Virus record (IMG/VR): IMGVR_UViG_2537561934_000016
Length of the DNA stretch: 15,809 nt
Strand: one strand, 5' to 3'
DNA from: a virus
Lineage: Duplodnaviria > Heunggongvirae > Uroviricota > Caudoviricetes
Part shown: positions 1-15,433 of the stretch, one piece after another
Numbering within the stretch: position 1 is the stretch's first letter
Layout: the number at the start of each line of letters is the position of its first letter
Translations under genes and position numbers: made by a program
Notes under the pieces: generated by a model
The model's input: only the letters and a program-made list of their open reading frames with translations
What the model was told of the DNA's origin: nothing
Databases searched by the model: none

Positions 1-474
1 ATGTACAGTCCGGTACAAATAGCCAATAAATTCATAACGTTGGGAAACCAACATCATAATCCTCTGACCCACATGCAACTGCAGAAGCTTACTTATATTG
101 CCCATGGTTACTATTTAGCATTAACAGGTAAGCCTTTGCTCAATGAATGTGTCTCCGCGTGGAAGTACGGTCCAGTTATTCCTGGAATGTACGATGCTTT
201 CAAAGACTATGGGAATAAACCTGTTACGAATGTAGCAGTAGCTCCTTTTGGTGGCATCGTTACTATGGATCCGCAAGCAGAGAGCATTATCGGGGCTGTT
301 TATAAGTTTTACGGCTCGAAAAATGGAATTGAGTTATCAACTCTAACTCATATGCCAGGTACGCCTTGGTCACAAGCTTATAATGGTATTGGCTCGTCGA
401 TCATCTCAAATGATGCGATCAAGGCTTATTATCATGATTTATTGAATAACCGACAGCAATGTCAGGGCCTCTGA
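1..474 (+). CDS. Panacea-domain (DUF4065; SocA/GepA-like) protein, putative antitoxin, 157 aa
   Basis: ATG at base 1, so the true start could lie upstream of the window. Translation has the DUF4065-like core LQKLTYIAHGYYLAL ... SAWKYGPVIPGMYDAFKDYG, recognised from memory of the family. A 22-nt gap separates it from the next same-strand ORF. Confidence 0.65.
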   Translation: MYSPVQIANKFITLGNQHHNPLTHMQLQKLTYIAHGYYLALTGKPLLNECVSAWKYGPVIPGMYDAFKDYGNKPVTNVAVAPFGGIVTMDPQAESIIGAVYKFYGSKNGIELSTLTHMPGTPWSQAYNGIGSSIISNDAIKAYYHDLLNNRQQCQGL

Positions 475-496
475 AAAAGTAATATTCAGGGATGAC

Positions 497-1045
497 ATGT
501 CTCATAATTCAGATATCTATAAACTGATCGGAGCGGCCGCAGGTGTTGAAAATGGTCGCTCTGAAGCATCCTTAAACTCTACTGACAGTCAAGAGCAGGC
601 TTTTGAATCCGCATTTGAGCCGTCTAATCATGAACGCGATGATGATTCTTCTTCAGAAAATAAGGCTATTCTGGAGGAAGAAGAGTTTGGTTCTAATACT
701 GGTGCATTGCATGAGTTTATGCAGCAGAACAGAATGGACAGTCTTCAAGCTCAGCTTGATATGCTCAAATCACAAGTACGGGATAAGATAGCTGACGCAA
801 CTGGTAAAGAAATAGACAATGAGCTCCGGACAAAAATGGCATCATTCACGGTTTGGTTTATGTCGTGTTGGTGCTTATTCGTTGTCGCAATGTTTACATC
901 GTTTCTTATTGCACATGAAGGAAAGGCTCCAGTTGAAGCGATCGTTGCATTACTAGGTACAAGTACAATTAGTATTGTTGGTTTGGTTGGTTTCGTTGTT
1001 AGTGGATTGTTCAAATCAAGAAAAGATAGTGATAAAGAAAAATAA
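497..1045 (+). CDS. Hypothetical membrane protein, 182 aa; candidate toxin partner of the Panacea protein
   Basis: ATG start with AGGGA 5 nt upstream. Acidic, Ser-rich N-terminus (DDDSSSENKAILEEEEF), a central charged helical segment, and two C-terminal hydrophobic helices (FTVWFMSCWCLFVVAMFTSFLIA and IVALLGTSTISIVGLVGFVVSGLF). No family recognised. Confidence 0.6.
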   Translation: MSHNSDIYKLIGAAAGVENGRSEASLNSTDSQEQAFESAFEPSNHERDDDSSSENKAILEEEEFGSNTGALHEFMQQNRMDSLQAQLDMLKSQVRDKIADATGKEIDNELRTKMASFTVWFMSCWCLFVVAMFTSFLIAHEGKAPVEAIVALLGTSTISIVGLVGFVVSGLFKSRKDSDKEK

Positions 1046-1084
1046 CCCGTACATATACGGGTTATCCATAGTTTTAGTTTAGTT
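1031..1084. terminator. Bidirectional intrinsic terminator between convergent genes
   Basis: Perfect 8-bp stem AACCCGTA/TACGGGTT (1044-1051 and 1056-1063) with a 4-nt loop, T-rich on the plus side (GTTTTAGTTTAGTT) and T-rich on the minus side (reverse complement of GATAAAGAAAAAT). Confidence 0.5.
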
Positions 1085-1348
1085 ATATTTTTTTTCCGTT
1101 CTGACTTTTTCCCACTCAGCTCGCCCTTCTTCCCGTCTTTTGTCAATATATTCCGCAAGATCCTGAATGTTGATGCAGCGTTTTGCTTTTTGTGATGTAC
1201 CGATGCGATATGTAGGTACAGGCAACTTACAAGCGTTTGCTTTTGCTTCTGCTGTGGCTGGACTCATACCAAAGTATTTTTGACTAACTGCTGAGAGTTC
1301 AATGTTTGGGGTATTGAATTCAGCCATCAGTAAAAACAAGGTATTCAT
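1079..1348 (-). CDS. PrtN-family (pyocin-activator-like) small DNA-binding regulator, 89 aa
   Basis: Translation MNTLFLLMAEF ... IQDLAEYIDKRREEG matches the remembered PrtN-family pattern (MNTLFLLMA ... DLAAYID). ATG confirmed as cat at 1346-1348, with GGAG 8 nt upstream on the minus strand. Confidence 0.75.
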   Translation of the reverse strand: MNTLFLLMAEFNTPNIELSAVSQKYFGMSPATAEAKANACKLPVPTYRIGTSQKAKRCINIQDLAEYIDKRREEGRAEWEKVRTEKKYN

Positions 1349-1384
1349 ATCATTTCTCCATCATAACCGGCTGCACCCGGTGAG

Positions 1385-2200
1385 TTACTTATTCATTTCA
1401 ATAATATTATTTTCTATCATTGATTTATTTAAAACCAAAGAAGGAGCAAGATGGTTGTCTATTTTAAACAATGCATAACTTTTAAACTGTTGGTGATATC
1501 CGTAACTAATAAGGATGCTAGAAAAATCTCTTAATTCATCTTCTTTTAAAAAATTAAAATGAAATGGGTTGTCACCATTTATGAACAATGAAACATCTAT
1601 TATGCAGTATTTCTCTCTGTTGTCATTTGCATAGAAAAAAATATAAGACATTCTGTTTGTTAAGACAATGCCATTAAATTTTCTTATGTCTGTAGCTATT
1701 TTGTTTTCCATGTTTGGTGCCACATATTTATTTTCAGAAATACATTTAATTTCATCTCCAGATGTCGTGATTATATAAAAATGAAACTTATCATAAATAT
1801 CTAACTTAACTACGCCATCATTATTATAAAGGCTGCTAAATTTTGGTGGTTCAACTTTTAAAGAATCATAGTTCTTTAAAAGAAGAGGGGAGTCAAATTT
1901 AATAACTTGTAGTATCCCTTTACCTTCAACCTCCATATTGATTGAAGATATAGCAATTGCATTATCTCTTTTATTATTCAGGATTATGGTTGATATATGC
2001 ATGTCATATATTCTACTTGCATTTGCTGAATACGACACTGTCACCTTTTTTGATATTTTTTGCACGCCAAAATATATAGTGAAGGCAGCGGCAAGAATAG
2101 ATAAGAATTTAATGTCAAATAAGGACCATAGCCACATTAGTTGCTCAATTGCTTCAGAGTTAATCATTTGCTTTACCATTATCGCTGTAATACAACACAT
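1385..2200 (-). CDS. Hypothetical protein with N-terminal transmembrane anchor, about 271 aa, AT-rich; start uncertain
   Basis: The 6-frame ORF 1385..2221 opens on TTG. In-frame ATGs lie at 2200, 2179 and 2167 and none has a strong Shine-Dalgarno. A hydrophobic helix (LMWLWSLFDIKFLSILAAAFTIYFGV) follows. No family recognised. Sits between the YfdQ-like and PrtN genes on the same strand. Confidence 0.5.
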   Translation of the reverse strand: MCCITAIMVKQMINSEAIEQLMWLWSLFDIKFLSILAAAFTIYFGVQKISKKVTVSYSANASRIYDMHISTIILNNKRDNAIAISSINMEVEGKGILQVIKFDSPLLLKNYDSLKVEPPKFSSLYNNDGVVKLDIYDKFHFYIITTSGDEIKCISENKYVAPNMENKIATDIRKFNGIVLTNRMSYIFFYANDNREKYCIIDVSLFINGDNPFHFNFLKEDELRDFSSILISYGYHQQFKSYALFKIDNHLAPSLVLNKSMIENNIIEMNK

Positions 2201-2321
2201 GTGTATATATACGCAATGCAATTATTTTGCAAGTGCTTCATTTACTATCAATAGCTTCGTCACGTTATTGTTTAATGGTTCTTTATAGGGGCGGCAATAG
2301 TTAAAATTATCGCTTCCGTAA

Positions 2322-2345
2322 ACGCCCCCGCAGGGGCATTTGCAG
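2322..2345 (-). terminator. Weak candidate intrinsic terminator after the YfdQ-like gene
   Basis: On the minus strand, GCCCC-TGCG-GGGGC hairpin followed by GTTTAC. Short stem and poor U-tract, so low confidence. Confidence 0.25.
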
Positions 2346-2353
2346 TAATGAAA

Positions 2354-3178
2354 TCAGGCGGTGAAAGTACCAATAAAGGTTTCTACTTTGCTGTCTTTGA
2401 ATTTCTCAACAAGCAGATCACGAAATTCGTTAGCCATTTCTTCCTGTACCGCTTCCAGCTGAATAATGCGCAGAACCAGTACAGGACGATCGCCAGTGAT
2501 AATGCTGAGGCGTAATTTAAACGGACGTTCTTTCAGACCTTCAAACGGAACGCATTTAAATTCAAATGCCACTGGCATAATGTCTTTGGTCTTCGCTTCG
2601 ACAGACTCCATCAGGGAGCGTTTGCCGCTGAAGTCATTATCTTCAAAATCAGCGGTCTGGTTCGCTTCAATTGTGATTTTACGGATCGCCGCAGCCGCTT
2701 TGGTTGCCTGAATGGCGTCACCATTAGCATCAAAGCCCACAAGGTAGTCGGCCCAGTCTTCAATCCATTCTGCCAGTGACTTCTGGGAGTTACGCTCGCC
2801 GTTAACAGACAACAGAGCAGAGAACGGTGCTGTCTTTTTCAGTTTGAGAGTGGCGGTGTTATCTGCGTGACCTGGTTCATCAATAGTACCCAGGTTAAGC
2901 ACACTGACGGCACGCATATTATCGGCATCGATAAAGCAGCGGGTGCCTTCATCTGCAAGAACTTTAGAATAACGGGTAAAGTCATCGATGCTGGCAGTGG
3001 AAAGCGCACCACGGAAACGGAAGCGATTTAAATTAAATTTTTCCAGATCATGAATGCGGAAATTCTCAGGCAATGCCACAGCATCGGCACCAATCTTACT
3101 GATAATTTCATTAACACCCTGAGCAGAAATAAGGGCATGGATTTGATTAATTGCGGTTGCGTCTAAGTTCTGAGACAT
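2354..3178 (-). CDS. yfdQ: YfdQ-like prophage protein (DUF2303 family), 274 aa
   Basis: ATG (cat 3176-3178) with GAGGA 7 nt upstream. The 274-aa length and position directly downstream of a 120-aa gene match the yfdP-yfdQ pair of E. coli cryptic prophages as I remember it. The symbol rests on recalled length and synteny, not alignment. Confidence 0.7.
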
Positions 3179-3243
3179 AATAAGTCCTCACTATATAAAA
3201 ATATTCAGTGATGAGATAAATAATCAGTTTATTAAGAACGATA

Positions 3244-3606
3244 TTAACGACCTGCTGCGCGGAGTTTTCCGTCAGGTTCACCGGCAAGAGTCAGTAATTG
3301 TCCCTGGTCCTCCTGCAGAATAGTCAGGCGACCACCGCGATTGACATACATCGGCGTTTCGGTGGTGTCTTCTTCGGAAATTTTCCCGCGGTTAGTCGGG
3401 CGAACATATGAGAGTTTGTGTTTGATTTTCACACGGTTCTCATCAAATGGTTCGATTTCCAGGTTGAGTGAGACCTTACCTTTGGTTTTCGTGTTCATCA
3501 CACCGGAAGCGACTTCACTGAGAACTGCGCCGATTTTGGTTTCAAATACGCCGCCGTCCAGCTCCCCGATAAATGCCTGCACATCAGTACTGCGTTCGCT
3601 AGCCAT
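3244..3606 (-). CDS. yfdP: YfdP-like prophage protein, 120 aa
   Basis: The 6-frame ORF runs to 3837, but its N-terminal 77 residues are Cys/Arg-rich and not protein-like. The ATG at 3604-3606 has a strong GAGGAG 7 nt upstream and gives MASERSTDVQAFIGELDGG..., 120 aa. Symbol assigned from remembered length and adjacency to the YfdQ-like gene. Confidence 0.6.
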   Translation of the reverse strand: MASERSTDVQAFIGELDGGVFETKIGAVLSEVASGVMNTKTKGKVSLNLEIEPFDENRVKIKHKLSYVRPTNRGKISEEDTTETPMYVNRGGRLTILQEDQGQLLTLAGEPDGKLRAAGR

Positions 3607-3654
3607 TTTGCTGCTCCTCATCATATCGACCCTGCAAGGTCGGTTGGTTTCTCC

Positions 3655-3743
3655 ACAAAACAGAGAAGAACACCTGCGGTGGCAGCCGCCCGGATGGATT
3701 GGGTTATGAGCCCGTCGTCCGGTGATGCTCTTCTCTGTTTTGT
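3655..3743. repeat. Long inverted repeat (about 17 of 18 bp) flanking a roughly 53-nt GC-rich spacer
   Basis: ACAAAACAGAGAAGAACA (3655-3672) against TGCTCTTCTCTGTTTTGT (3726-3743); 15 contiguous bp are perfectly complementary. Confidence 0.45.
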
Positions 3744-3789
3744 AAAAAGAGCGGTACCAGCCGGAAGCAAGTGTACAAACTGGTACCGC
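3744..3789 (-). terminator. Candidate intrinsic terminator (minus strand)
   Basis: Perfect 10-bp inverted repeat GCGGTACCAG (3751-3760) / CTGGTACCGC (3780-3789) with a 19-nt loop. On the minus strand the hairpin is followed by TCTTTTTAC. Confidence 0.3.
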
Positions 3790-4238
3790 CAAAGCAGTGG
3801 CTGTTGTGGTGGGGTTGTCACTCAGGCGTATGGTCAACCTGACAATCCGGTGTCCTCAACGGGGAAAGAGTAACCCCGCCATACTTACCGCCGCGCCATT
3901 TCGCGGATTACCACAACGCTGAGAGCACTTAGCCAGTTACGGCACCACACTTTGTCGCGGTTCCATAAATGCCCTCATCGTTGCACCCTGGTCTCTTCCC
4001 AGGCGTCAAACCGGATCGCCACGCTGGTTAGGCGTCTTATCAGCATCATCATTGACTTGCACATTCCGGCTACCTGGTTTGTTTGCCCGAGCAAGGAGTG
4101 GATTGTCCCCTTTAACGTCCCCAGACCGCTAACGACGCATGTGCCATACGCCGTGTTACAACCAAATTTAGTTTAATCTTGCCTGTGTTATGTATCCTAT
4201 AGATACATTATGTATCTTAAGGGTACATTGTCAAGTAT

Positions 4239-4260
4239 AAAAAAACCTGCCGAAGCAGGT
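4239..4260 (-). terminator. Intrinsic terminator downstream of the cI-like repressor gene
   Basis: Minus-strand sequence AACCTGC-TTCG-GCAGGTT followed by TTTTTTT (plus-strand A run 4239-4245, stem 4245-4260). Lies 13 nt past the repressor stop. Confidence 0.5.
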
Positions 4261-4272
4261 TATAAATATTGA

Positions 4273-4947
4273 TTAGGCCTTTATTTTGTATCTTCTTGGT
4301 TTTCCTGAGAAAATCACTGTACCAATTATAGAGCAATTACCGTTGATCTTAATGTAAGGTTCAGGCCAGTTTGGGTTTAATGCTTTGAGGTAACGCTGTG
4401 TTCCATCTTCTATCAACCGCTTGAAGGTGGTTTCGCCTGTATCGTGCATCAATGCAATAACGTCGTCACCGTGGCAGGCAGGGACTTCAGGATCAACAAA
4501 AATCATGTCTCCCGGGCGGTACTCATCAATCATTGAATCACCAATCACCCGCAAGATATAAGTCATTTCGCCACAGGGTACAGGGCAGGGATAAGTTTCT
4601 GCTGTGCTCAAATCAACCTCAGAATAGCCAACTTCTTTCCATGCTCCGGCCTGTACCCATGATATGACAGGGACTAACGTTATTTGTTTGTTAGTGATTG
4701 AAACGTCAGGTTTTTTTGTGATGTTCGTTGTCTGGTGTTCTTGATCAAGCCATCCGACAGGCAGGTCGAAACATTTTTCGATGTGCCGTGCCATGCTGTC
4801 ACCGATATTTTTAGTTGCACCATCTCCCATAAACCTGCTGGTCTGGGTTGGCTCGCGATCAATCATGGTGGCAAAGGAAGAATTCCCGCCAACACCATCT
4901 CTCAGTTTTCTGGCGTTAGACCGCCGGATGTCATGGACTGTTTTCAT
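4273..4947 (-). CDS. cI: Phage CI-type repressor, N-terminal DNA-binding domain plus C-terminal S24 (LexA-like) autopeptidase domain, 224 aa
   Basis: C-terminal domain carries the S24 catalytic motifs: Ser in ILRVIGDSMIDEY and Lys in TTFKRL. The N-terminal region ends in the DLPVGWLD pattern typical of phage repressor DNA-binding domains. Divergent from a cro-like gene. Confidence 0.85.
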   Translation of the reverse strand: MKTVHDIRRSNARKLRDGVGGNSSFATMIDREPTQTSRFMGDGATKNIGDSMARHIEKCFDLPVGWLDQEHQTTNITKKPDVSITNKQITLVPVISWVQAGAWKEVGYSEVDLSTAETYPCPVPCGEMTYILRVIGDSMIDEYRPGDMIFVDPEVPACHGDDVIALMHDTGETTFKRLIEDGTQRYLKALNPNWPEPYIKINGNCSIIGTVIFSGKPRRYKIKA

Positions 4948-4963
4948 AAAGAAATTAAAACCT

Positions 4964-4982
4964 TTGTACCGATAAGGTACAA
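4964..4982. promoter_or_regulatory. Candidate operator in the cI-cro intergenic region
   Basis: 19-bp palindrome TTGTACC-GATAA-GGTACAA with perfect 7-bp arms, 17 bp upstream of the cI start and about 55 bp upstream of cro. A further GGTACA half-site lies near 5026-5031. Confidence 0.4.
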
Positions 4983-5037
4983 GTATCTTGAAGGTTCATC
5001 TCAATCATGTAATATGTATACCGGAGGTACATATTGT

Positions 5038-5247
5038 ATGAAAGCGTATTGGGACTCTTTAACCAAAGAACAGCAGGGTGAGTTGGCCGGAAAAGTTGGC
5101 TCAACACCAGGCTACTTACGGCTGGTTTTCAATGGTTATAAAAAAGCCAGTTTTGTGCTGGCTAAAAAACTTGAGCAATGCACGTCAGGTGCAATTACGA
5201 AATCTGACTTAAGACCGGATATCCGGAAGACTGGGATGTCCTGCTGA
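5038..5247 (+). CDS. cro: Cro/YdaS-like HTH regulator, 69 aa
   Basis: ATG at 5038 with GGAGG 10 nt upstream. Translation MKAYWDSLTKEQQGELAGKVGSTPGYLRLVFNGYKK ... GAITKSDLRPDI resembles prophage Cro/YdaS proteins, which end in a DLRPDIF-type motif. The track's upstream extension to 4735 is antisense to cI and rejected. Confidence 0.7.
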   Translation: MKAYWDSLTKEQQGELAGKVGSTPGYLRLVFNGYKKASFVLAKKLEQCTSGAITKSDLRPDIRKTGMSC

Positions 5248-5933
5248 CGGATGTTTTTCATAAAAGCTGGCCGCTGGCCTCCGATCCTTCTCAACAAATG
5301 CGACTGATGGCAATGGCGGTGGACTCCGGCGGTGAAGACGGGGTCACTGATAATGCCTATAAATTCTGGCGTCGTTGCCGTCGTGATGGCCTTGGTAAAC
5401 GTATTTACCTGTTTAAGGGCGACAGCATCCGGCGCGCAAAACTGATCACCCGTACATTCCCTGATAACACCGGACGAACGGGCCGACGGGCGCAGGCCGC
5501 AGGTGATGTACCGCTCTGGCTTCTTCAGACGGATGCCCTGAAAGACCGGGTGAATAACGCGTTATGGCGTGACTCGCCAGGTCCCGGCTATGTGCATTTC
5601 CCTGACTGGCTGGGGAGCTGGTTTTACGACGAACTGACGTATGAAGAGCGGAGCAGTGACGGGAAATGGAGTAAGCCGGGTCGCGGTGCCAACGAAGCTT
5701 TTGACCTGATGGTGTATGCCGAGGCTCTGGTCATTCTGCATGGATACGAAAAGATCCGCTGGCCGGATGCACCGGAGTGGGCGAGCCGGGAAACCTGGCT
5801 GGAGTGTGTCCCGGACAGTACCGAACCGTCACCCACACCGGAACCGGTATCCACGCCTGTTAAAAAACAAAAACGGAAGAAAACAGTAACTGACGATGTT
5901 AACCCCTGGCTGACTTCCGGAGGATGGTTATGA
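5208..5933 (+). pseudogene. 3' fragment of lambda-type terminase large subunit (gpA-like C-terminal region), no start codon
   Basis: Reading frame opens straight after a TGA at 5205-5207 with no plausible start. Its stop overlaps the next start in an ATGA arrangement, as at the lambda A-W junction. Followed by gpW-like and portal genes. The ATPase N-terminal part and the small subunit are absent. Confidence 0.65.
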
Positions 5934-6142
5934 ATCAGAATGATATTGAAGCCATGATTCAGCGTTATACGGAAGCTGAAATGGCGGTGCTGGACGGAAA
6001 ATCCGTCACTTTTAATGGTCAGCAGATGACCATGGAAAACTTATCTGAGATCCGGCAGGGGCGGCAGGAGTGGGAGCGCCGCCTTGCGGCTCTGATTACA
6101 CGACGACGGGGGCATCCCGGGTACCGGCTGGCGAGGTTCTGA
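5930..6142 (+). CDS. gpW-like head-tail joining protein, 70 aa
   Basis: ATG at 5930 with GGAGG 7 nt upstream. C-terminus RRRGHPGYRLARF resembles the lambda gpW C-terminus (RRRGPAGFYV, recalled). Lies between terminase and portal as in lambda. Confidence 0.65.
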   Translation: MNQNDIEAMIQRYTEAEMAVLDGKSVTFNGQQMTMENLSEIRQGRQEWERRLAALITRRRGHPGYRLARF

Positions 6143-7494
6143 TGGCAATTCTTGATGATGTGATTGGCGTTTTTTCACCAGGATGGAAAGCGGCAAGGCT
6201 GCGTTCCCGAGCGGTGATCCAGGCTTATGAGGCCGTAAAAACGACGCGGACACACAAAGCCCGACGGGAGAACCGAACTGCCGACCAGTTAAGCCAGTAC
6301 GGGGCCGTGTCGTTACGTGAGCAGGCCCGTTACCTTGATAACAACCACGATCTGGTCATTGGTGTATTTGACAAGCTGGAAGAACGGGTGGTGGGGAAAA
6401 ACGGGATTATTGTCGAGCCACATCCGGTATTACGCAATGGGGCCATTGCCCGTGACCTGGCAGCGGAGATACGCACCCGATGGAGTGAATGGTCTGTCAG
6501 TCCGGAAGTCACCGGGCAGTTTACCCGCCCGATGCTGGAACGTCTGATGCTGCGTACCTGGCTGCGCGATGGTGAGGTGTTTGCCCAGATGGTTTCCGGG
6601 CGCATAAACAGCCTGACGCCTTCTGCCGGTGTTCATTTCTGGCTGGAGGCGCTCGAGCCGGACTTTATTCCCATGACCAGTGATGAGAGCAACAGGCTGA
6701 ATCAGGGCGTGTTTGTTGATGACTGGGGGCGTCCCGAAAAATATCTGGTGTATAAAAGCCGTCCTGTATCCGGACGGCAGATGGAAACCAAAGAAGTGGA
6801 TGCAGAGCGAATGCTGCATCTTAAATTTGTTCGCCGTCTGCACCAGATGCGCGGGACGTCTTTATTGTCCGGTGTACTGATCCGCCTCAGTGCCCTGAAA
6901 GAGTATGAAGATTCTGAGCTGACTGCAGCAAGGATCGCCGCTGCTCTGGGGATGTACATCCGGAAAGGCGACGGACAGAGCTATGAACCGGATGGTAATG
7001 GCAGCAAGGAGAATGAACGCGAGCTTACCATTCAGCCAGGCATTATTTACGACGATCTGAAACCCGGCGAAGAAATCGGAATGGTGAAGTCGGATCGCCC
7101 CAATCCTAATCTTGAAACTTTTCGTAATGGTCAGTTGCGTGCAGTGGCGGCTGGTAGTCGTCTGAGTTTTTCCAGTACAGCGCGCAACTATAACGGCACT
7201 TACAGCGCCCAGCGTCAGGAGCTGGTTGAGTCTACTGATGGCTACCTGATCCTGCAGGACTGGTTTATTGGTGCCGTCACCCGCCCGATGTATCGTGCAT
7301 GGCTGAAACAGGCTGTGGCATCCGGTGTTATCAGGTTACCCCGCGATCTTGACCGTTCTTCACTGTATACCGCGGTGTATTCCGGACCAGTGATGCCGTG
7401 GATTGACCCTGTTAAGGAGGCTGAGGCCTGGAAAATCCAGATTCGTGGTGGAGCGGCGACAGAATCAGACTGGGTATCCGGCAGGAAACACTGA
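6142..7494 (+). CDS. Phage portal protein (lambda gpB position), 450 aa, possibly C-terminally truncated
   Basis: ATG at 6142 overlaps the gpW stop (TGATG). Called by synteny (terminase, W, portal) and size; the sequence is not obviously close to lambda gpB from memory. The track start at 6070 is an upstream extension and rejected. Confidence 0.6.
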   Translation: MAILDDVIGVFSPGWKAARLRSRAVIQAYEAVKTTRTHKARRENRTADQLSQYGAVSLREQARYLDNNHDLVIGVFDKLEERVVGKNGIIVEPHPVLRNGAIARDLAAEIRTRWSEWSVSPEVTGQFTRPMLERLMLRTWLRDGEVFAQMVSGRINSLTPSAGVHFWLEALEPDFIPMTSDESNRLNQGVFVDDWGRPEKYLVYKSRPVSGRQMETKEVDAERMLHLKFVRRLHQMRGTSLLSGVLIRLSALKEYEDSELTAARIAAALGMYIRKGDGQSYEPDGNGSKENERELTIQPGIIYDDLKPGEEIGMVKSDRPNPNLETFRNGQLRAVAAGSRLSFSSTARNYNGTYSAQRQELVESTDGYLILQDWFIGAVTRPMYRAWLKQAVASGVIRLPRDLDRSSLYTAVYSGPVMPWIDPVKEAEAWKIQIRGGAATESDWVSGRKH

Positions 7495-7498
7495 ATGA

Positions 7499-10342
7499 AT
7501 GCACCCGTGCGGAGCAGTCGGCCAGCGTGGTGCTCTGGGAACCCATGCGACTGATGCTGCAGGCTCAGCACGTGCAGCCAGCACATCAGCCGGGCAGGCC
7601 GCGACGTCGGCTCAGTCAGCGTCTTCCAGCGCAGGAACGGCATCAACAAAGGCTACTGAAGCATCAAAAAGTGCTGCCGCTGCAGAGTCCTCAAAAAGCG
7701 CGGCGGCTACCAGTGCCGGTGCGGCGAAAACGTCAGAAACGAATGCTGCAGCGTCACAAAAATCTGCAGCCACTTCTGCATCCACCGCGACCACGAAAGC
7801 GTCAGAAGCTGCCACCTCAGCCCGGGATGCGGCGGCCTCAAAAGAGGCAGCGAAATCATCAGAAACGAGCGCAGCCTCGAGCGCCAGTAGTGCAGCCTCT
7901 TCGGCAACGGCGGCAGGAAATTCCGCGAAGGCCGCAAAAACGTCTGAGACGAATGCGGATAACAGCGCACAGGCGGCAGCGGCCTCACAAACTGCATCGG
8001 CAAACTCCGCGACAGCAGCCAAAAAATCAGAAACCAACGCGAAAAATAGCGAGGCAGCAGCAAAGAGCAGCGAAACTAATGCTAAATCCAGTGAAACAAA
8101 CGCGGCGAAATCTGCAGCGGACGCACTTAATTATCGCAACCAGGCACAATCCGTTGTTGGTAACAATATTGGTCTTGGTGAAGTTGCTATGACCTGCACT
8201 GATATCTCTGTTGAGCCATCAGGTTATATTGGATTTATCAGGATTTACATCTCAGCGAAAGGTTATCCATCAGTAGCGTCTAGTGCCGGGGATAATCTTA
8301 TTTCTGGTTATATAGTTAGATCAGAAGTGTCAACAAAAAGATATTCCGGTCTATTTGTTGGTTCAGATACAAAATCATTGTATTCGTACATTTACAGCCA
8401 AAGTTCTGGCCCGCAATGGATACGTCATACCCGCAGAGATGAATTAAGCCGCTTTGGTCAAAATGAATCAACAACTCGTATGTATGGTCCAACTGGTGAT
8501 CGTTTCTTTGAAATCCATACTAACGGGAGTTGGGGGGTTTATGATTCTTCTTCTGGACAATGGTCTCCGTTAGGTTTAGCCCAGGGTGGTACTGGTGGAA
8601 GAACTATCGAGCAAGCACGTGCGAACTTGCGGGTAATGTATGAGCAAAAAGCTGGCCTTGCTAATACTGACCTAAACACCCTTACCGGTGAATATTCTGG
8701 TTTCTATCAACAACCAACGAGCGCTTACGCAACAGAAGAATTAAATTACCCAATCGGTCTGGCGGGCGCTTTAATAGTGCTCCAAACGAGAGCCAACACT
8801 GCTTCTTCCTGCGTTCAGGTGTACCACCCTTATAATAATCCGGGAATTACTTATAGACGAATATATGAAGGAGGTAGCGGTACCTGGTCTGAATGGAAGA
8901 GAGATGTATCAACAGAAAGGGTTGAAGAGGGAAAAGAAACAACTTACGTATATTCTACGTATTCTTCAGGCGCACCACGCTTACAGGTTTCCAAATCTGG
9001 TTTGTGGGGTTGTCATAATGGCACTGGCTGGTTGCCATTAGCTGTTGGGCAAGGAGGTACAGGTGCGACAACAGTAGAAGATGCGCGAAACAACTTAAGT
9101 CTTGGCGAAAGTAGCGCAGTTAAATTTAAAAACCTTACTTTAACCGAAGCGCTCGACACGACATTAGGACTGCTTACAAAAACAGGACGAGACTGGAACG
9201 CTCAGCATACTGATAACGTCGACAAATTTAGACCAATTGCAGGCAGTACAAACGGCCCGGCAGGCTCTATGGTTCTTGGCGGCATTCATGTTCAATTTAG
9301 TAAAAATTATGCTGTGCAGTTCGGAGGCCGCAATTCCGGTTTTTGGGGAAGAACAATTGAAAATGGAACGACGCAGGAATGGAAGAAATTACTAACAGTA
9401 GACGATCTCAATTCATCTACCGCTCTTGCTGTCAGGTCATTAACCACATCTAACCCGATAAAATCTGGCGGAGGGCGGATTGATGTCCTTGGAAGCACGT
9501 CAGACTATAGCAAAATGGATTGCTTTGTACGTGGGTTTGATAGCACCGGTAATTCTCTCGCGTGGGCGTTGGGTTCATCAGTCGGCGTAAGTAAGATGCT
9601 GTCGCTAAAAAATTTCTTTAGCGGAGCTGAGATACTGCTAAATGGTAATGACGGCGCGGTTCAACTCAAAACAGGTGCTGTTAACGGTGCTAAAGCGCAG
9701 GCGCTCACTATCAACAAGGATGAGGTTAACTCAACTGTTGATTTAACTCTTACAAAACAAACAGGGACTGGCAATCGTTTTGTTTTACAGAACTTAGGTA
9801 ATACAGAACTACCATTTGCTGTCAAGGTGTGGGGTTCAGGTGATCGACAAAACGTTTTTGAGGTTGGAACGTCTGCCGCGTATCTGTTTTATGCTCAAAA
9901 AACATCGTCAGGTCAGCTGTTTGATGTAAACGGTGCTATTAACTGTACAACACTGAATCAGTTATCAGACCGCGAGCTGAAAGACAATATTCAGATTATC
10001 AGTGACGCAACCGAAGCTATCCGTAAAATGAACGGGTACACCTACACACTTAAGGAAAACGGACTGCCTTACGCTGGTGTTATTGCACAGGAAGCAATGG
10101 AGGCAATACCGGAAGCGGTAGGCTCATTCACTCATTACGGTAAAGAGTTGCAGGGACCAACGGTTGACGGCAATGAATTACGTGAAGAAACACGTTATCT
10201 GAATGTTGACTACGCCGCCGTGACGGGCTTACTTGTTCAGGTCGCCCGTGAAACAGATGATCGCGTTACCGCGCTGGAAGAAGAAAACGCAGAATTAAAA
10301 CAAAGATTATCTGCAATTGAGGCGGCGCTTGCCTCTAAATAA
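7499..10342 (+). CDS. stf: Side tail fibre (Stf-like) protein, N-terminally truncated, with C-terminal S74 intramolecular-chaperone domain, 947 aa
   Basis: Residues from about 15 onward (ATDAAGSARAASTSAGQAATSAQ ... AAATSAGAAKTSETNAAASQKSAATSAS) match an internal region of lambda Stf as I recall it. The C-terminal part begins with the S74 autoproteolysis signature SDRELKDNIQ (Ser codon at 9965-9967) and ends in a coiled coil. The frame opens 1 nt after a TGA. Confidence 0.8.
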   Translation: MHPCGAVGQRGALGTHATDAAGSARAASTSAGQAATSAQSASSSAGTASTKATEASKSAAAAESSKSAAATSAGAAKTSETNAAASQKSAATSASTATTKASEAATSARDAAASKEAAKSSETSAASSASSAASSATAAGNSAKAAKTSETNADNSAQAAAASQTASANSATAAKKSETNAKNSEAAAKSSETNAKSSETNAAKSAADALNYRNQAQSVVGNNIGLGEVAMTCTDISVEPSGYIGFIRIYISAKGYPSVASSAGDNLISGYIVRSEVSTKRYSGLFVGSDTKSLYSYIYSQSSGPQWIRHTRRDELSRFGQNESTTRMYGPTGDRFFEIHTNGSWGVYDSSSGQWSPLGLAQGGTGGRTIEQARANLRVMYEQKAGLANTDLNTLTGEYSGFYQQPTSAYATEELNYPIGLAGALIVLQTRANTASSCVQVYHPYNNPGITYRRIYEGGSGTWSEWKRDVSTERVEEGKETTYVYSTYSSGAPRLQVSKSGLWGCHNGTGWLPLAVGQGGTGATTVEDARNNLSLGESSAVKFKNLTLTEALDTTLGLLTKTGRDWNAQHTDNVDKFRPIAGSTNGPAGSMVLGGIHVQFSKNYAVQFGGRNSGFWGRTIENGTTQEWKKLLTVDDLNSSTALAVRSLTTSNPIKSGGGRIDVLGSTSDYSKMDCFVRGFDSTGNSLAWALGSSVGVSKMLSLKNFFSGAEILLNGNDGAVQLKTGAVNGAKAQALTINKDEVNSTVDLTLTKQTGTGNRFVLQNLGNTELPFAVKVWGSGDRQNVFEVGTSAAYLFYAQKTSSGQLFDVNGAINCTTLNQLSDRELKDNIQIISDATEAIRKMNGYTYTLKENGLPYAGVIAQEAMEAIPEAVGSFTHYGKELQGPTVDGNELREETRYLNVDYAAVTGLLVQVARETDDRVTALEEENAELKQRLSAIEAALASK
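7540..8110 (+). repeat. Ala/Ser/Thr-rich degenerate tandem repeats inside the tail-fibre gene
   Basis: Repeated units of the form AAKTSETNA / AAKSSETNAKSSETNAAKSA. The GC-rich low-complexity DNA gives spurious long ORFs in other frames. Confidence 0.5.
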
Positions 10343-10850: not shown

Positions 10851-12149
10851 CTATTTCACTATTGCTAAGTTTTTTTCCTTCTCTTTACCTATCCACATAG
10901 AAACAAGTTCTCGTTTCTGAGATATATGTAGATTGTCAAAGTTAGGTATGTATTTAAAAGTCTCCGCTCTACCTCTGCGGAGTTCATAGAAAGTTTTAAT
11001 CAAAGATTTTGGTTTTATTTCTGATGAAAGGCCGAATCGGCGGATAAGATTATTGATAGTATGATTAACAGAGCGAAGTTGAGCTGTTGAGGTTATTTGT
11101 GAGAAGTACGATACCCATCCCAATCGTTTACCTTCAAACACACATCCCGTAATTCTGAGATTTAGTTTCCACTGACAATATGCAACAGCTCGTTCTTTAT
11201 CACGCTTACTTTTAGCTTGTAGTAGAGCGTGCCTATATGCAGTAAAAATTTTTGCTAAGGATGACTCAAATCTAAGAATGCTCTCATGTTTTATCAATAA
11301 TTCTCGATTTTCTATGTGGTATCCCAAAAAGTTAAAACTTTCATCCAAACTGCCTACTTTGGATTTTGAGTTCTCTTCATTTAATGGATGTGGGTTTAAA
11401 TTTAATGATTGAAGCTTATCAATGATATGAGAAGCTATTTTTGTTGCTTGATATTTTGGTGTTAAAATAAGAATGTCATCAACGTATCGCATGTACCATA
11501 TGTCATGCATTTTATTGATTTCATCATCGAAATTAGATAGTGATATTTCAGCTAAAATGTTTGATATCGCTAATCCCTGAGGTACTCCTCTGGTATTATT
11601 AGGGATACCTTTGCTTCCTGTGGTTCCACTTACAGTAGGCACGATTAATGATGATGTTATTAACTGTCTAATTTCTTTTTTTCTAATTTTATTTTTTATT
11701 GCATTAATTATCAATTTATGTTCAATTGAAGGATAGAAACTTTTAAGATCTATTTTTGCATATTCAGCATATAGACTGTTGTTTAATGCTTCTTTCAATG
11801 AGTCAATTACTGTATGTGGTAGTTTTAATCTGGACTTAGGATATATTTCCGTAAGGCATTCACAGAGAGCTCTAAGAGTAATTCTGTCCCTAGCAGTTGG
11901 TATGGAAATCTGTCTGGGTGTAGAGTTAGCGCCTTTAGATATTAATTTTTCTTTATATGCTGTAAATTTGTAATTGCCAGAATTAACCTTTTCAAAAATG
12001 AAAGTGATCTCATTTTTTATTGTCAAATCAAGTTTTGATGGGCGAATCCGATCTATGCCAATCGCTCCTGATTCTTTGATTTTTTCAGAGTATACTTTTA
12101 GAAGATTTTTTTTCGAGAATGACTTTTTAAAAATTCTGCTTGCAGTCAT
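10851..12149 (-). CDS. Reverse transcriptase (defence-associated Abi/UG/retron-like RT), about 432 aa
   Basis: RT motifs are readable in the translation: IPTARDRITLRAL, GVPQGLAISNILAEISLSNFDDEI, catalytic YMRYVDDILIL (YVDD) and FNFLGYHI, followed by a roughly 130-aa C-terminal extension. The track start at 12155 is TTG; the first ATG is at 12149. The start overlaps the 3' end of the upstream membrane-protein gene by 23 nt. Strongly AT-rich. Confidence 0.85.
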   Translation of the reverse strand: MTASRIFKKSFSKKNLLKVYSEKIKESGAIGIDRIRPSKLDLTIKNEITFIFEKVNSGNYKFTAYKEKLISKGANSTPRQISIPTARDRITLRALCECLTEIYPKSRLKLPHTVIDSLKEALNNSLYAEYAKIDLKSFYPSIEHKLIINAIKNKIRKKEIRQLITSSLIVPTVSGTTGSKGIPNNTRGVPQGLAISNILAEISLSNFDDEINKMHDIWYMRYVDDILILTPKYQATKIASHIIDKLQSLNLNPHPLNEENSKSKVGSLDESFNFLGYHIENRELLIKHESILRFESSLAKIFTAYRHALLQAKSKRDKERAVAYCQWKLNLRITGCVFEGKRLGWVSYFSQITSTAQLRSVNHTINNLIRRFGLSSEIKPKSLIKTFYELRRGRAETFKYIPNFDNLHISQKRELVSMWIGKEKEKNLAIVK

Positions 12150-12678
12150 AGTCAATCCAAAGATATATTAATGGGAGTATATAAAGTGCGGCAGTAATAA
12201 ATATTCGAAGTAATATCCATAAAATAACAATTATTTTTTCTTTTTGTGTGGGGATCCTCGTCTTAAGTCCAACTTGAGTTACCCTTGAAATTTTATCATC
12301 TATGTCACGGTGATTCTCAACCTCATTGAGCAAATTAAAATATTTTTCTTTCTGTTCAAGAGATAACTGTTGACTGGTGGTAATGTCAAAATAGAGTCGC
12401 TGTAGTGCAATATAATTCCTTCTCATGGCTATTGCTCGACCACGAAAATCTAGGTTAGATACGATCAGAGAAATACCCAGTAGAGCCACTGAAAGTATCG
12501 CCGCAACGACATCTGTATTATCTCCTAGAACCTTTGGAAATCGCAACGTTACAATTGAAAGTACCGCACTCAATATAGCATACCAAACGAGGATAAATTG
12601 AGAGTGTTTTTCAAGCCATTCTAGTCGATGGTGCGCTTGGATACGTGCTTTATATGTAAACCAAATATTGTCATGCAT
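12127..12678 (-). CDS. Multi-pass membrane protein (SLATT-like topology by inference), 183 aa, co-operonic with the RT
   Basis: ATG (cat 12676-12678) with AAGGA 6 nt upstream. Hydrophobic helices ILVWYAILSAVLSIVTLRF, VVAAILSVALLGISLIVSN and IIVILWILLRIFITAALYILPLIYLWI. The 3' end overlaps the RT start. Confidence 0.7.
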   Translation of the reverse strand: MHDNIWFTYKARIQAHHRLEWLEKHSQFILVWYAILSAVLSIVTLRFPKVLGDNTDVVAAILSVALLGISLIVSNLDFRGRAIAMRRNYIALQRLYFDITTSQQLSLEQKEKYFNLLNEVENHRDIDDKISRVTQVGLKTRIPTQKEKIIVILWILLRIFITAALYILPLIYLWIDYDCKQNF

Positions 12679-12900: not shown

Positions 12901-13149
12901 TTAATGAACAAACCACTCGTCAGCAGACTCCCAGGTATCTTTCAGAGTCTCCTGAACAAAAGTTTTAGCTGAATCTTTATCAGCGGTGCGCGTAACAGAA
13001 AGGCCATCGTTGCTGGTGGCTTTTACGATCACTTCTACATCGTCATAACGTTTACTGATGCGTCGGGTTAATTCTTCCTTTAACGCATCCACAGCACCGG
13101 TTGGCATTTTAGTCATTTTTTCTTTGGCTATGCAGATTTCAATACGCAT
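12901..13149 (-). CDS. DinI-family (DNA-damage-inducible protein I-like) protein, 82 aa
   Basis: Translation [31 protein letters not shown] ... [11 protein letters not shown] matches the remembered DinI pattern (MRIEVTIAK ... ETWESADDWFV). AGGGGA 6 nt upstream of the ATG. Two LexA boxes lie directly upstream. Confidence 0.8.
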
Positions 13150-13209: not shown

Positions 13210-14307
13210 TCAAGAGGTCTTATTTCTGCTCCTTTGGAGTTCTTCAAAACGATTATGTAAAGATTTCGGATACAGTTCGGTATATACCTGCCATAGCACG
13301 TTTAATGAACGATGCCCTGTAACCTGAGCGACTTCCTCAATACTAAAACCAGCCTCAAATAAGCGACTTGCCCCTTCTCTACGCAAATCATGGTATCTCA
13401 GATCTTTAATACCTAATTTGCTTCTTACCCTCTGAAATCCTGCGGTAACAGAAGTGCTGTTATATGGAAAAATGAATTCTGATTTTTTGGGTTGTCGCTG
13501 GACGATATCCCAGGCTTCCCCAAGCAAGGCAACTTTCATATGGTTGCCTTCCTTTTTACGTGGATCTTTCCTGTCTCTTACTAGTATAGATTTTTGTTCC
13601 TGGTCGAGATCTTCCCATCGTAACCGGCATACTTCTCCGATTCGCATACAGGACCACACAGAAAATTTGAGGATATCAACGAACGGAATTTTTGAGCATT
13701 TATGAGTAGATCGTTGTTGAAGGCCTTCAATGAGCATGTTCAGTTCATCAGATGCTGGTCTACGATTACGACGGTTTGATTTACCAATCAAACCGAGTTT
13801 AAGTAGATATGGACGAGCGCTTTTCGCCGGGTTTGATGTGTAATTGATTCCGTATACAGGTTTTGCCGCATCCAGAACACTGCCAAGATAACTAACATCG
13901 TGGCTGACTGTTGCTGGGCCTGCACCAGCGTTGTTTCTTAGCCTGCAATGTTCAATTACGTCATTTTCTGTCAGTTCAGATAGTTTGATCGCGGAGATGT
14001 CACTATCCATAAGCAGTTCCAGCACATATCTTTTAGTACGGCCTGCTTTACCTCCGGCATTTGGGTCATTTAAATATTTGTGTAGTAAGTCACGGACTGT
14101 AAGTCCGTCAACAGCATTTGATGATGGAATGCCATATAGATCTAATTCCATCACTTTCTGTGCGCCCCATGTTTTGGCATGAGCATGTTTAGGGAATGTT
14201 TTGCTTTCCCTGTAAGTGATAACACCTTTTTCTTTGATAATCACATTACAGCGATAGCGTGGTGTGCCATCGGATTTTAGTCGTTTCTCTATGTTATAGT
14301 ACGCCAT
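13210..14307 (-). CDS. int: Tyrosine recombinase / phage integrase (dusA-associated type by context), 365 aa
   Basis: Integrase-sized protein whose C-terminal region HDLRREGASRLFEAGFSIEEVAQVTGHRSLNVLWQVYTELY carries the His/Arg/Tyr pattern of tyrosine recombinases. Encoded divergently from dusA, 88 bp from its start. Confidence 0.9.
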   Translation of the reverse strand: MAYYNIEKRLKSDGTPRYRCNVIIKEKGVITYRESKTFPKHAHAKTWGAQKVMELDLYGIPSSNAVDGLTVRDLLHKYLNDPNAGGKAGRTKRYVLELLMDSDISAIKLSELTENDVIEHCRLRNNAGAGPATVSHDVSYLGSVLDAAKPVYGINYTSNPAKSARPYLLKLGLIGKSNRRNRRPASDELNMLIEGLQQRSTHKCSKIPFVDILKFSVWSCMRIGEVCRLRWEDLDQEQKSILVRDRKDPRKKEGNHMKVALLGEAWDIVQRQPKKSEFIFPYNSTSVTAGFQRVRSKLGIKDLRYHDLRREGASRLFEAGFSIEEVAQVTGHRSLNVLWQVYTELYPKSLHNRFEELQRSRNKTS

Positions 14308-14326
14308 TACACGACCTCGTTATTTC

Positions 14327-14362
14327 GGGTTCCCATAAAGCGTGGGAACCTGTGCGGGAACC
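14327..14362. promoter_or_regulatory. GGGAACC repeat cluster in the int-dusA intergenic region (candidate integrase or regulator binding sites)
   Basis: GGGTTCCC (14327-14334, inverted) plus two direct copies of GGGAACC (14344-14350 and 14356-14362) spaced 12 bp apart. Confidence 0.3.
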
Positions 14363-14395
14363 TAACGCGAGAAAAATAGCCTGAAATGTTCAAAA

Positions 14396-15433
14396 ATGCA
14401 CGATAATCCTGAAACACAGAAAACTAATCAAACCAGCGTGATGCCTGAAAAAACTGGCGCTTACTGGAGTTCTCGGTTTAGCATTGCTCCTATGCTCGAC
14501 TGGACGGACAGACATTGCCGCTATTTCTTGCGTCTGCTTTCCCGCAATACGTTGCTGTATACCGAAATGGTGACCACAGGGGCGATTATTCACGGTAAAG
14601 GTGATTACCTGGCGTACAGTGAAGAAGAACATCCGGTAGCGTTGCAACTCGGCGGTAGCGATCCGGCGGCGCTGGCACAGTGTGCGAAGCTGGCAGAAGC
14701 GCGTGGATATGATGAGATCAACCTGAATGTCGGCTGCCCGTCTGACCGGGTGCAGAACGGCATGTTTGGTGCGTGTCTGATGGGTAATGCGCAGCTGGTT
14801 GCCGACTGCGTGAAAGCGATGCGCGATGTGGTGTCGATTCCAGTGACGGTGAAAACGCGTATTGGCATCGATGACCAGGACAGCTATGAATTTCTCTGCG
14901 ATTTCATCAACACCGTTTCCGGCAAAGGCGAGTGTGAGATGTTTATCATCCACGCACGTAAAGCCTGGCTTTCGGGGTTAAGCCCGAAAGAAAACCGTGA
15001 AATCCCGCCGCTCGATTATCCGCGTGTGTATCAACTGAAGCGTGACTTTCCGCATCTGACAATGTCGATTAACGGTGGTATCAAGTCGCTGGAAGAGGCC
15101 AAAGCACACCTGCAACATATGGATGGCGTGATGGTCGGGCGCGAGGCGTATCAGAATCCGGGTATTCTGGCGGCGGTAGACCGGGAGATCTTTGGTTCCT
15201 CGGATACCGATGCCGATCCAGTGGCGGTAGTGCGCGCCATGTATCCGTACATTGAGCGTGAACTCAGCCAGGGGACGTATCTCGGCCATATTACCCGGCA
15301 TATGTTGGGCTTGTTCCAGGGTATTCCTGGCGCGCGGCAGTGGCGGCGTTATTTAAGTGAAAATGCCCATAAAGCGGGTGCAGACATTAATGTGCTGGAA
15401 CACGCGCTCAAACTGGTGGCGGATAAGCGTTAA
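14396..15433 (+). CDS. dusA: tRNA-dihydrouridine(20/20a) synthase DusA, 345 aa
   Basis: Translation carries the Dus family core ([19 protein letters not shown] ... [13 protein letters not shown] ... catalytic region) and ends ... LKLVADKR, as in E. coli DusA. An alternative in-frame start is at 14441 (MPEKTG). The 5' end may be element-supplied. Confidence 0.9.

Follow-up and report, generated by a model that had tools for sequence, protein, structure and literature searches.

Integrases that direct mobile elements into dusA have been defined as a family, the dusA-associated integrases, with semi-conserved repeats at their att sites and an island origin for the 5' end of the occupied dusA gene (Farrugia et al. 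2015, PMC4482086). The Stx2 phage phi1720a-02 integrates 100 bp into dusA and places a phage-borne dusA 5' ORF in frame with the host gene; its core is the 7-bp sequence TCGAGCA, and attP reads were obtained after induction in mice (PMC6328086). For a dusA-specific element, excision was shown to require RdfN, a PrtN-family recombination directionality factor whose gene lies on the other side of attP from int (Rivard et al. 2021, PMC8409611), and a dusA element in E. coli K-12 was shown to give dusA a new promoter and a new N-terminus (PMC8409611). A related case of an integrase gene lying against its own attachment site is KplE1 (CPS-53), where the promoter of the IntS gene overlaps an att arm and the integrase is negatively autoregulated (Panis et al. 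2010, PMC2951348). Arm-type sites of dusA elements are not described in PMC4482086, PMC6328086 or PMC8409611 (the term 'arm-type' is absent from the first and the word 'arm' from the last), and a literature search for 'dusA' with 'arm-type' returned the two terms together in no title or abstract, only in full text. Here we describe a dusA junction in which a short repeated word occupies five positions on both arms of the reconstructed attP.

The right-hand junction of a decayed prophage in dusA

The DNA analysed, referred to hereafter as the window, is a stretch of 15,809 nucleotides from IMG/VR virus record IMGVR_UViG_2537561934_000016. Near its right end, a tyrosine integrase gene of the dusA-associated family (int, 365 aa; 13210-14307, minus strand) and a dusA ORF (14396-15433, plus strand) that the ORF list and the sequence show to be intact over 345 codons lie divergently on either side of an 88-bp spacer (14308-14395). 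This is the arrangement expected of a dusA-associated integrase, and the ORFs confirmed what an earlier sequence-only reading of the window had reported, including the 88 bp between the two starts. The integrase matched the Pfam family Phage_integrase over residues 187-346 (E = 8e-21). It was identical to the phi1720a-02 integrase at 361 of 364 residues, and the integrases of mEp460 and Lys8385Vzw matched it at 98-99.5% identity; on these figures, it is essentially the integrase of phage phi1720a-02. Relatives with 50-82% Int identity adjoin dusA in about 35 other species, and this int-dusA junction was found in 742 of 5426 complete E. coli genomes.

The sequence-only reading had also proposed that the start of this dusA is supplied by the element, citing apparent differences between its first roughly 30 residues and those of K-12. 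The N-terminus that it quoted was exact, and the difference is real: DusA departs from the K-12 protein at residues 3, 5, 7, 10, 15, 21, 22, 23, 26 and 30, ten of the first 30, and is identical to it from residue 31 to 345. At the DNA level there were 18 mismatches to K-12 in the 96 nt before the core and 10 in the 942 nt after it, all of the latter silent. Alignment with an island-free dusA, which had been suggested as the way to find the attR core, was carried out as a three-way comparison, with the window as attR, K-12 as attB, and strain AR434 together with the window-identical NZ_CM151387.1 as attL. The sole stretch common to all three is ATGCTCGA, located at 14492-14499 in the window, at 4159-4166 in locus L003, at 1188-1195 in locus L062 and in K-12 attB. 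It contains, on the opposite strand, the published 7-bp core of phi1720a-02, TCGAGCA. These alignments place the crossover within ATGCTCGA (14492-14499); the 7-bp overlap is probably TGCTCGA (14493-14499), and in attP it stands between two pentamers that are inverted copies of each other, TCCTA-TGCTCGA-TAGGA.

Free phages carry the same piece of dusA. From its start through the end of the core (104 nt), the dusA 5' end of the window had a single mismatch to phage mEp460, and in both mEp460 and Lys8385Vzw int, the 88-bp repeat-bearing spacer, the dusA 5' piece, the core and the other arm are contiguous, which constitutes attP. In the phi1720a-02 record the int-to-core stretch was 98% identical to that of the window. 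The step in divergence from K-12, the att alignments and the free-phage attP together indicate that dusA codons 1-32 and everything upstream of them are phage DNA. The gene is thus divided into an element-borne 5' end (phi-dusA', codons 1-32; 14396-14491, plus strand) and a host-derived remainder (14500-15433, plus strand) that is about 99% identical to K-12 in DNA and, from residue 31, identical in protein. Because the element carries its own codons 1-32 with their upstream region, recombination within ATGCTCGA rebuilds an intact hybrid dusA, with the reading frame restored, and the original 5' end of the gene is left at attL as a 104-nt stub. The stub at attL matched K-12 over 104 nt with no mismatch. 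The sequence-only reading had suggested a search for the matching repeat at the other end of the island; the core is indeed present there, but about 305 bp to the left of window base 1 and not inside the window. A dusA 5' end like that of prophage-free strains, with the island boundary elsewhere, had been set against its own proposal by the same reading and was not what we found, since divergence steps at the core.

Measured from core to core, the element is about 14.8 kb, a length given by the 104-nt dusA stub annotated just left of the window in NZ_CM151387.1. Positions 1-7200 of the window matched NZ_CM151387.1 and NZ_CM151382.1 exactly, and a window position equals the position in the NZ_CM151387.1 locus (L062) minus 1500. 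Strain AR434, which gave the first 100% match to the junction, was rejected as the source of the window, as 5224-6995 differs and the right 8.8 kb has one 1-nt gap. The element encodes a Panacea-domain protein, a PrtN-family protein, YfdP, YfdQ and a CI-like repressor of the LexA family. It also carries a tail-fibre gene, pieces of terminase, portal and tail genes, a reverse transcriptase with a SLATT partner, a dinI-like gene and int. The virion gene set of this 14.8-kb remnant is incomplete, and by its gene content the element is a decayed lambdoid prophage. The cargo adjoining int was classified by PADLOC, on the AR434 copy, as a UG17-class defence reverse transcriptase with its SLATT partner; the copy in the window has a 1-nt deletion in a T run.

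The PrtN-family gene (1079-1348, minus strand) is homologous to rdfN; its match to PF11112 (E = 2.8e-23) was measured on the AR434 copy, which is identical to that of the window. It lies about 1.4 kb inside attL, across attP from int, as rdfN does in dusA elements, and by this homology its product would be an excision factor. The int and rdfN genes, attL and attR all look intact. Taken together, the alignments identify 14308-14520 as attR, where the right end of the decayed 14.8-kb lambdoid prophage joins dusA about 100 bp past the start of the gene. Insertion of a prophage into the start of dusA with provision of a substitute start is already known biology. The junction is not a new finding, because such events have been published for this integrase family and, with experimental proof, for phi1720a-02, whose integrase is 99% identical (PMC4482086, PMC6328086, PMC8409611), and what it adds is a correct annotation of this locus.

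GGGAACC repeats occupy five positions on both arms of attP

The sequence-only reading had drawn attention to three GGGAACC copies between int and dusA as possible arm-type or regulator sites. All three are in the spacer, although they are not all direct: two are direct and one is inverted. The inverted copy, GGTTCCC (P-a; 14328-14334, minus strand), lies 164 bp before the core. The direct copies lie 148 bp (P-b; 14344-14350, plus strand) and 136 bp (P-c; 14356-14362, plus strand) before it and form a pair spaced by 12 bp. Each is a candidate arm-type site. The whole 15.8-kb window contained four matches to GGGAACC against 1.2 expected, three of them within 35 bp; at that rate only about 0.007 matches are expected per 88 bp, so chance clustering of the word is negligible.

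The far arm, on the attL side, carries GGGAGCC at +51 and GGGAACC at +62, counted from the start of the core. When the 455-bp attP was rebuilt, GGGRRCC occurred at -164 (inverted), -148, -136, +51 and +62 and nowhere else, and so on both sides of the core. Similarity of the far arm among three E. coli elements stops directly after the second site. A search of the rebuilt attP for the IHF consensus WATCAANNNNTTR found neither a strict nor a relaxed match, a consensus scan being a weak test; A/T tracts are present at -120, -100, -72, -44, +20 and +26. With this five-site, both-arm layout and the behaviour of the word in relatives described below, we put at about 0.8 the probability that the GGGAACC repeats are the arm-type integrase sites of a five-site attP, with a word that co-varies with the Int N-terminus. 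The suggestion of arm-type sites in the sequence-only reading is thereby supported.

The word changes between lineages on both arms

The comparison drew on 52 loci of other species that encode related integrases, and 48 of these gave sequences usable for the layout of the repeats. A direct pair of words was found 34-50 bp upstream of int in most of the 48 (12-60 bp in a few distant ones), spaced by 12 bp or, in a few, by 11. An inverted copy nearer int was present at 8/9 or better in 15 of the 48, and at 7/9 in four more sequences including the window. In three Vibrio loci, whose integrases are 50-52% identical, a 12-bp-spaced pair close to int was not found.

The word itself differs between lineages. 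It is GGGAACC in Escherichia, Kosakonia and Phytobacter, GGGGTGC in Izhakiella, Mixta, Serratia and many Xenorhabdus, and GGTGTAC in some Xenorhabdus and in Plesiomonas. GGTGTCC was found in Rosenbergiella gaditana, Proteus and Erwinia dacicola, GGATACC in Shewanella, GGGTGAC in Idiomarina, and GGGAGAC in the Salinivibrio phage SMHB1. In a Salmonella diarizonae locus, a clear fossil junction was seen, with a 30-codon relic of int and decayed repeats.

Four classes with an intact attP had the same word on both arms: the E. coli phages (GGGAACC), YeP1 (GGGGTGC), EKP1 (GGTGTAC) and SMHB1 (GGGAGAC). The far-arm pair stands at +49 to +51 and +61 to +62 from the core in all four, although the intervening sequence is not conserved. 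In YeP1 and EKP1 the pair stands at +50 and +61; in SMHB1 it reads GGGGTACTC and GGGAGACTG at +49 and +61. In the Klebsiella phage Kp4885-1, GGGGTGCT stands twice beside int, and the opposite end of the record carries GGGGTTCT and GGGGTCCT. Sites bound by a protein that co-evolves with them would be expected to show this pattern, in which the positions are kept and the word changes on both arms.

The word tracks the N-terminus of the integrase

Among 37 integrases, identity over Int residues 1-58 predicted whether two elements share a word with an AUC of 0.956, as compared with 0.675 for residue 70 to the end. When alignment columns were ranked by how much they tell about the word, 11 of the top 25 fell within residues 1-58, where 4 were expected. 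Codons 1-58 (14134-14307, minus strand) encode a predicted N-terminal arm-binding domain, a prediction that draws on this covariation and on the fold modelled by AlphaFold. In the model, strands at residues 2-10, 16-26 and 29-38 are followed by a helix at 41-58; beyond residue 58 the chain continues through a linker into a helical core-binding domain and then the catalytic domain. The mean pLDDT was 85.8 for the whole integrase and 93.5 for the N-terminal domain modelled alone. Full-length lambda Int chains aligned with the model over 357-370 columns, and lambda Int 75-356, which has no arm domain, over about 290. No arm-binding Pfam family matched within Int 1-156, where only a sub-threshold Int_N match was seen at residues 72-147. 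A sequence search of the PDB returned XerA/XerC-like catalytic domains only, and a fold search with the N-terminal domain alone gave no specific match.

Two pairs of close relatives separate the ends of the integrase. In Rosenbergiella (loci L013 and L014) the C-terminal parts are 96% identical and the N-terminal parts 62%, and the words are GGTGTCC and GGGGTGC, respectively. Counted from the int ATG, the divergent tract extends over roughly -90 to +250, spans the int-side repeats and roughly the first 85 int codons, and has flanks that are both 83-100% identical. In Xenorhabdus (L018 and L021), with 95% identity in the C-terminal part as against 78% in the N-terminal part, the words are GGGGTGC and GGTGTAC. 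Since no more than 20-55 bp separate the int-side repeats from the N-terminal codons, the covariation could in part stem from their being exchanged together in recombination tracts, by physical linkage, and not from co-adaptation.

Linkage also bears on whether another protein of the element, the PrtN-family RdfN or a transcription regulator, binds the repeats in place of the integrase. The rdfN genes lie just across attP from int and so are linked to the sites too, and short direct repeats in att arms are a common type of binding site for excision factors. An alignment of the RdfN homologues had no power to discriminate between Int and RdfN as the reader of the word. Sites for excision factors are usually confined to one arm, however, whereas here the word is on both arms at conserved distances. 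In addition, the tract exchanged in Rosenbergiella, comprising int codons 1 to about 85 and the int-side repeats, fits, on the int side of these two loci, a unit made of the Int N-terminal domain and its sites. We consider it unlikely that a protein other than the integrase reads the repeats.

The main role of the inverted pair P-a/P-b might instead be in expression and not in recombination, either as a hairpin in the leader RNA of the hybrid dusA or of int, or as a palindromic operator there. The sites do lie between the two start codons, positions 14322-14356 fold into an 11-bp stem (-17.7 kcal/mol, z = -4.1), and in the Escherichia sp. locus L006 both halves have changed together, to GGTCCCC and GGGGACC. 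A hairpin leaves the third, direct copy and the far-arm pair unexplained, however, and in the relatives it is the direct pair that is found in most, the inverted copy reaching 8/9 in only 15 of 48. Folding of the complete 88-nt spacer was unremarkable on both strands (z = -1.4 and +0.09), and a search of the whole window with Rfam at its gathering thresholds matched no family. As the main function of the pair, a hairpin or operator seems to us distinctly improbable. Finally, while the start of dusA does vary among E. coli lineages (the B2-type strains described below are an example), the reading of the N-terminal differences as strain polymorphism, of the repeats as chance and of the island boundary as lying elsewhere is refuted by the att alignments, in which divergence changes from 18/96 to 10/942 exactly at the core, by the free-phage attP with the same 5' piece, by an attL with a K-12-type stub in the same genomes, and by a clustering of GGGAACC far above chance expectation.

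A candidate dusA promoter within int

The spacer and the start of int may also serve expression of the hybrid gene. On the strand antisense to int codons 3-6 lies TGTTATAGT (14292-14300, plus strand), an extended -10-like box and candidate promoter of the hybrid dusA. The antisense of these codons reads TGnTATA(G/A)T, and in relatives the synonymous sites within the box are nearly fixed (the rare ATA for Ile6 in 25/32, TAT for Tyr4 in 24/30, C at the third base of codon 5 in 27/30); neighbouring synonymous sites vary freely. The corresponding 13-nt box TATGnTATAGTA is also found upstream of dusA in island-free strains of the K-12 and B2 types. We take the box as a candidate dusA promoter that the element reproduces. 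A generic scan of 14150-14560 for sigma-70 promoters and terminators found nothing, and the TGTTATAGT box was not among its calls.

In B2-type strains zur abuts dusA, and the 331-aa DusA starts at the equivalent of Met16, with yet another 5' end. The possibility that the region upstream of K-12 dusA is the fossil of an older junction was considered and rejected as unsupported. With the box TATGnTATAGTA included, the score of the best alignment was reached by 2/300 shuffles for K-12 and 3/300 for the B2 type; without the box, it was reached by 86/300 and 166/300, respectively. An identity-based metric was uninformative for this test.

A model for the integrase and its sites

We propose that Int acts as a two-handed recombinase of the lambda type. 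Its core-binding and catalytic domains would act at TCCTA-TGCTCGA-TAGGA, and its first ~58 residues would bind GGGAACC(T) at the five arm sites, namely -164 (inverted), -148, -136, +51 and +62. By bridging arm and core, as lambda Int does, the integrase would assemble the recombination complex. After integration the far-arm pair, GGGAGCC at +51 and GGGAACC at +62, would be at attL, outside the window, and the RdfN homologue (1079-1348) would direct excision. Because the three int-side sites stand between the int ATG and the dusA ATG, Int bound there would probably lower expression of its own gene and might also affect the hybrid dusA. The regulatory consequences are drawn from the precedent of KplE1 IntS, the int and dusA promoters not having been located by the generic scan.

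A broader proposal is more tentative. Int residues 1 to about 60 and the five arm sites might together form an exchangeable cassette, with a word known in at least seven versions and a dusA core that stays fixed, and the antisense -10 box in int codons 3-6 might allow Int at the int-side sites to couple the state of recombination to expression of int and dusA. We regard this combination as possible, at odds somewhat below even. If true, different dusA elements would share a chromosomal site without answering each other's integrase.

What the present analysis adds to the known junction is modest: a map of the arm sites, with five conserved positions and a lineage-specific word that changes with the first ~58 residues of Int. 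If confirmed, this map would provide a natural series of domain and DNA-word pairs for studying arm-binding recognition. It would also fix the att boundaries exactly for the annotation of the many dusA islands, and help to predict cross-talk where several dusA elements reside in one host.

Comparison with known systems

The closest described elements are the phages phi1720a-02 and mEp460, whose integrases are 99% and 98% identical to that of the window, respectively. The locus shares with them insertion about 100 bp into dusA, a 7-8-bp core, an element-borne dusA 5' end and an int divergent from dusA, and it differs in that the element is a 14.8-kb remnant with incomplete virion genes. IMEVchUSA3 and the Vibrio dusA elements have a PrtN-family RdfN (PMC8409611), the homologue of which is here the product of 1079-1348; IMEVchUSA3, in contrast, is a plasmid-mobilised island under AcaCD control with a distantly related integrase (PMC8409611).

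The mechanistic parallel is with phage lambda. Lambda Int is a heterobivalent integrase, and attP of lambda carries the arm-type sites P1, P2 and P'1-3. In both systems the two arms carry repeats of a short word unlike the core-type sites, adjacent sites are about one helical turn apart, and the distance of the sites from the core is some tens of bp in one arm and about 140-160 bp in the other. In both, an N-terminal domain precedes the core-binding and catalytic domains, and full-length lambda Int aligns over the whole of our model. There are differences as well. The N-terminal domain here shows no detectable sequence relation to that of lambda Int, and a match to the IHF consensus was not seen. 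The int gene runs away from attP and starts beside the arm sites, its excision factor belongs to the PrtN type instead of the Xis type, and the element inserts into the 5' end of a protein-coding gene, which it repairs. In this orientation of int the locus resembles KplE1, where the 5' end of the integrase gene likewise abuts an att arm, so that the arm-type sites fall in the promoter or leader region. The target of KplE1 is a tRNA gene, however, whereas the spacer described here must also drive the dusA gene that integration rebuilds.

Conservation of DNA around the dusA start

In B2-type E. coli, represented by the zur-dusA region of strain PU-1 (L060, 2285-3951), zur directly adjoins dusA, the DUF2713 gene between them being absent, and the dusA 5' end upstream of the core crossover sequence is unrelated to that of the K-12 type. 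DusA of these strains has 331 aa, and its first residue corresponds to Met16 of the K-12 protein. Because of this start position, the 15-residue N-terminal extension annotated for DusA in both K-12 and the window may be untranslated, or may not be universal.

The DNA around the annotated dusA start codon is conserved among relatives. The stretch AAAATGCACGAAAAT (window 14388-14407, and at the same place in the related loci L007-L057) is kept at the DNA level, as is an AAAATA box located some 20 bp upstream. Conservation of both extends to Xenorhabdus loci in which dusA is not beside int; in the two Serratia loci that have no dusA beside int, the box is degraded (ATGCATTAAAAT). Since the conservation persists at the Xenorhabdus loci, where there is no adjacent dusA, comparison of these sequences suggests a role for the stretch and the AAAATA box at the level of DNA, for example as an int promoter, in bending or as another binding site.

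A promoter-like box within the start of int

An extended -10-like box, TGTTATAGT, lies on the (+) strand at 14292-14300, pointing at dusA and antisense to int codons 3-6. The codon choices that make up this box vary little: its Ile codon is the rare ATA in 25 of 32 relatives, the Tyr4 codon of int is TAT in 24 of 30, and codon 5 ends in C in 27 of 30. The synonymous sites that make the box are thus nearly fixed among relatives, whereas those beside it are variable. The identical box, 13 nt in extent, occurs 5' of dusA in island-free E. coli of both the K-12 and the B2 type (at about 2910 in L002 and at 2909-2921 in L060).

Exchange and decay at the int-dusA junction

Mosaic integrases were found in Rosenbergiella (L013 compared with L014) and in Xenorhabdus (L021 compared with L018 and L011). 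The exchanged tract is short, lies within -105 to +250 relative to the start codon of int, and comprises the int-side repeats together with the first 25-85 int codons, while the rest of the integrase genes are 88-96% identical. In both genera the repeat word was switched together with the tract. A change in the repeats was also seen in Escherichia sp. MOD1-EC7003 (L006), in which the integrase is 99% identical. In its spacer 5' of int, GGGGACC (GGTCCCC in the complementary strand) is the sequence of the inverted as well as the first direct site, and the third int-side site is still GGGAACC. Both halves of the palindrome are thus altered jointly in this locus.

In Salmonella enterica subsp. diarizonae CCUG 30040T (L056, 1400-1590), a related integrase is reduced to its first 30 codons, with decayed repeats and an intact dusA downstream. 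This locus is a fossil junction, and the dusA start derived from the element has apparently become permanent there. In the attP of the phage Lys8385Vzw record (L005), the core is tandemly duplicated (ATGCTCGAATGCTCGA); the duplication may be an artefact of the joining of prophage ends, or it may be real.

Cargo and divergent decay of the prophage

A defence-type reverse transcriptase and its SLATT partner occupy 10851-12678 (-), adjoining dinI (12901-13149) and int. In the copy carried by E. coli AR434, PADLOC assigned the reverse transcriptase to class UG17 (E 1.2e-158) and the overlapping SLATT membrane protein to RTasSLATT (E 1.5e-56); its models gave no retron identity for this copy of the enzyme, and an Rfam search across the window returned no match to an RNA family. 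Compared with AR434, the window's copy is one nucleotide short in a run of T (about 10870-10877), and its last ~30 residues are altered as a result; this deletion may reflect a sequencing error or real decay.

The opposite end of the element from int is a second cargo spot (1-1045). It holds two (+)-strand genes, both directly inside the attL arm. The gene at 1-474 has a Panacea/SocA-like antitoxin domain (PF13274; E 5.9e-18 for AR434's identical copy), and the one at 497-1045 encodes a protein of 182 aa without a Pfam family. Between these ends, early and late genes that take up about 10.9 kb in AR434 are missing from the window prophage, and their place is taken by a 1.8-kb segment (within 5224-7500) that includes fragments of terminase and portal genes. 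The same dusA prophage has therefore decayed differently in closely related strains.
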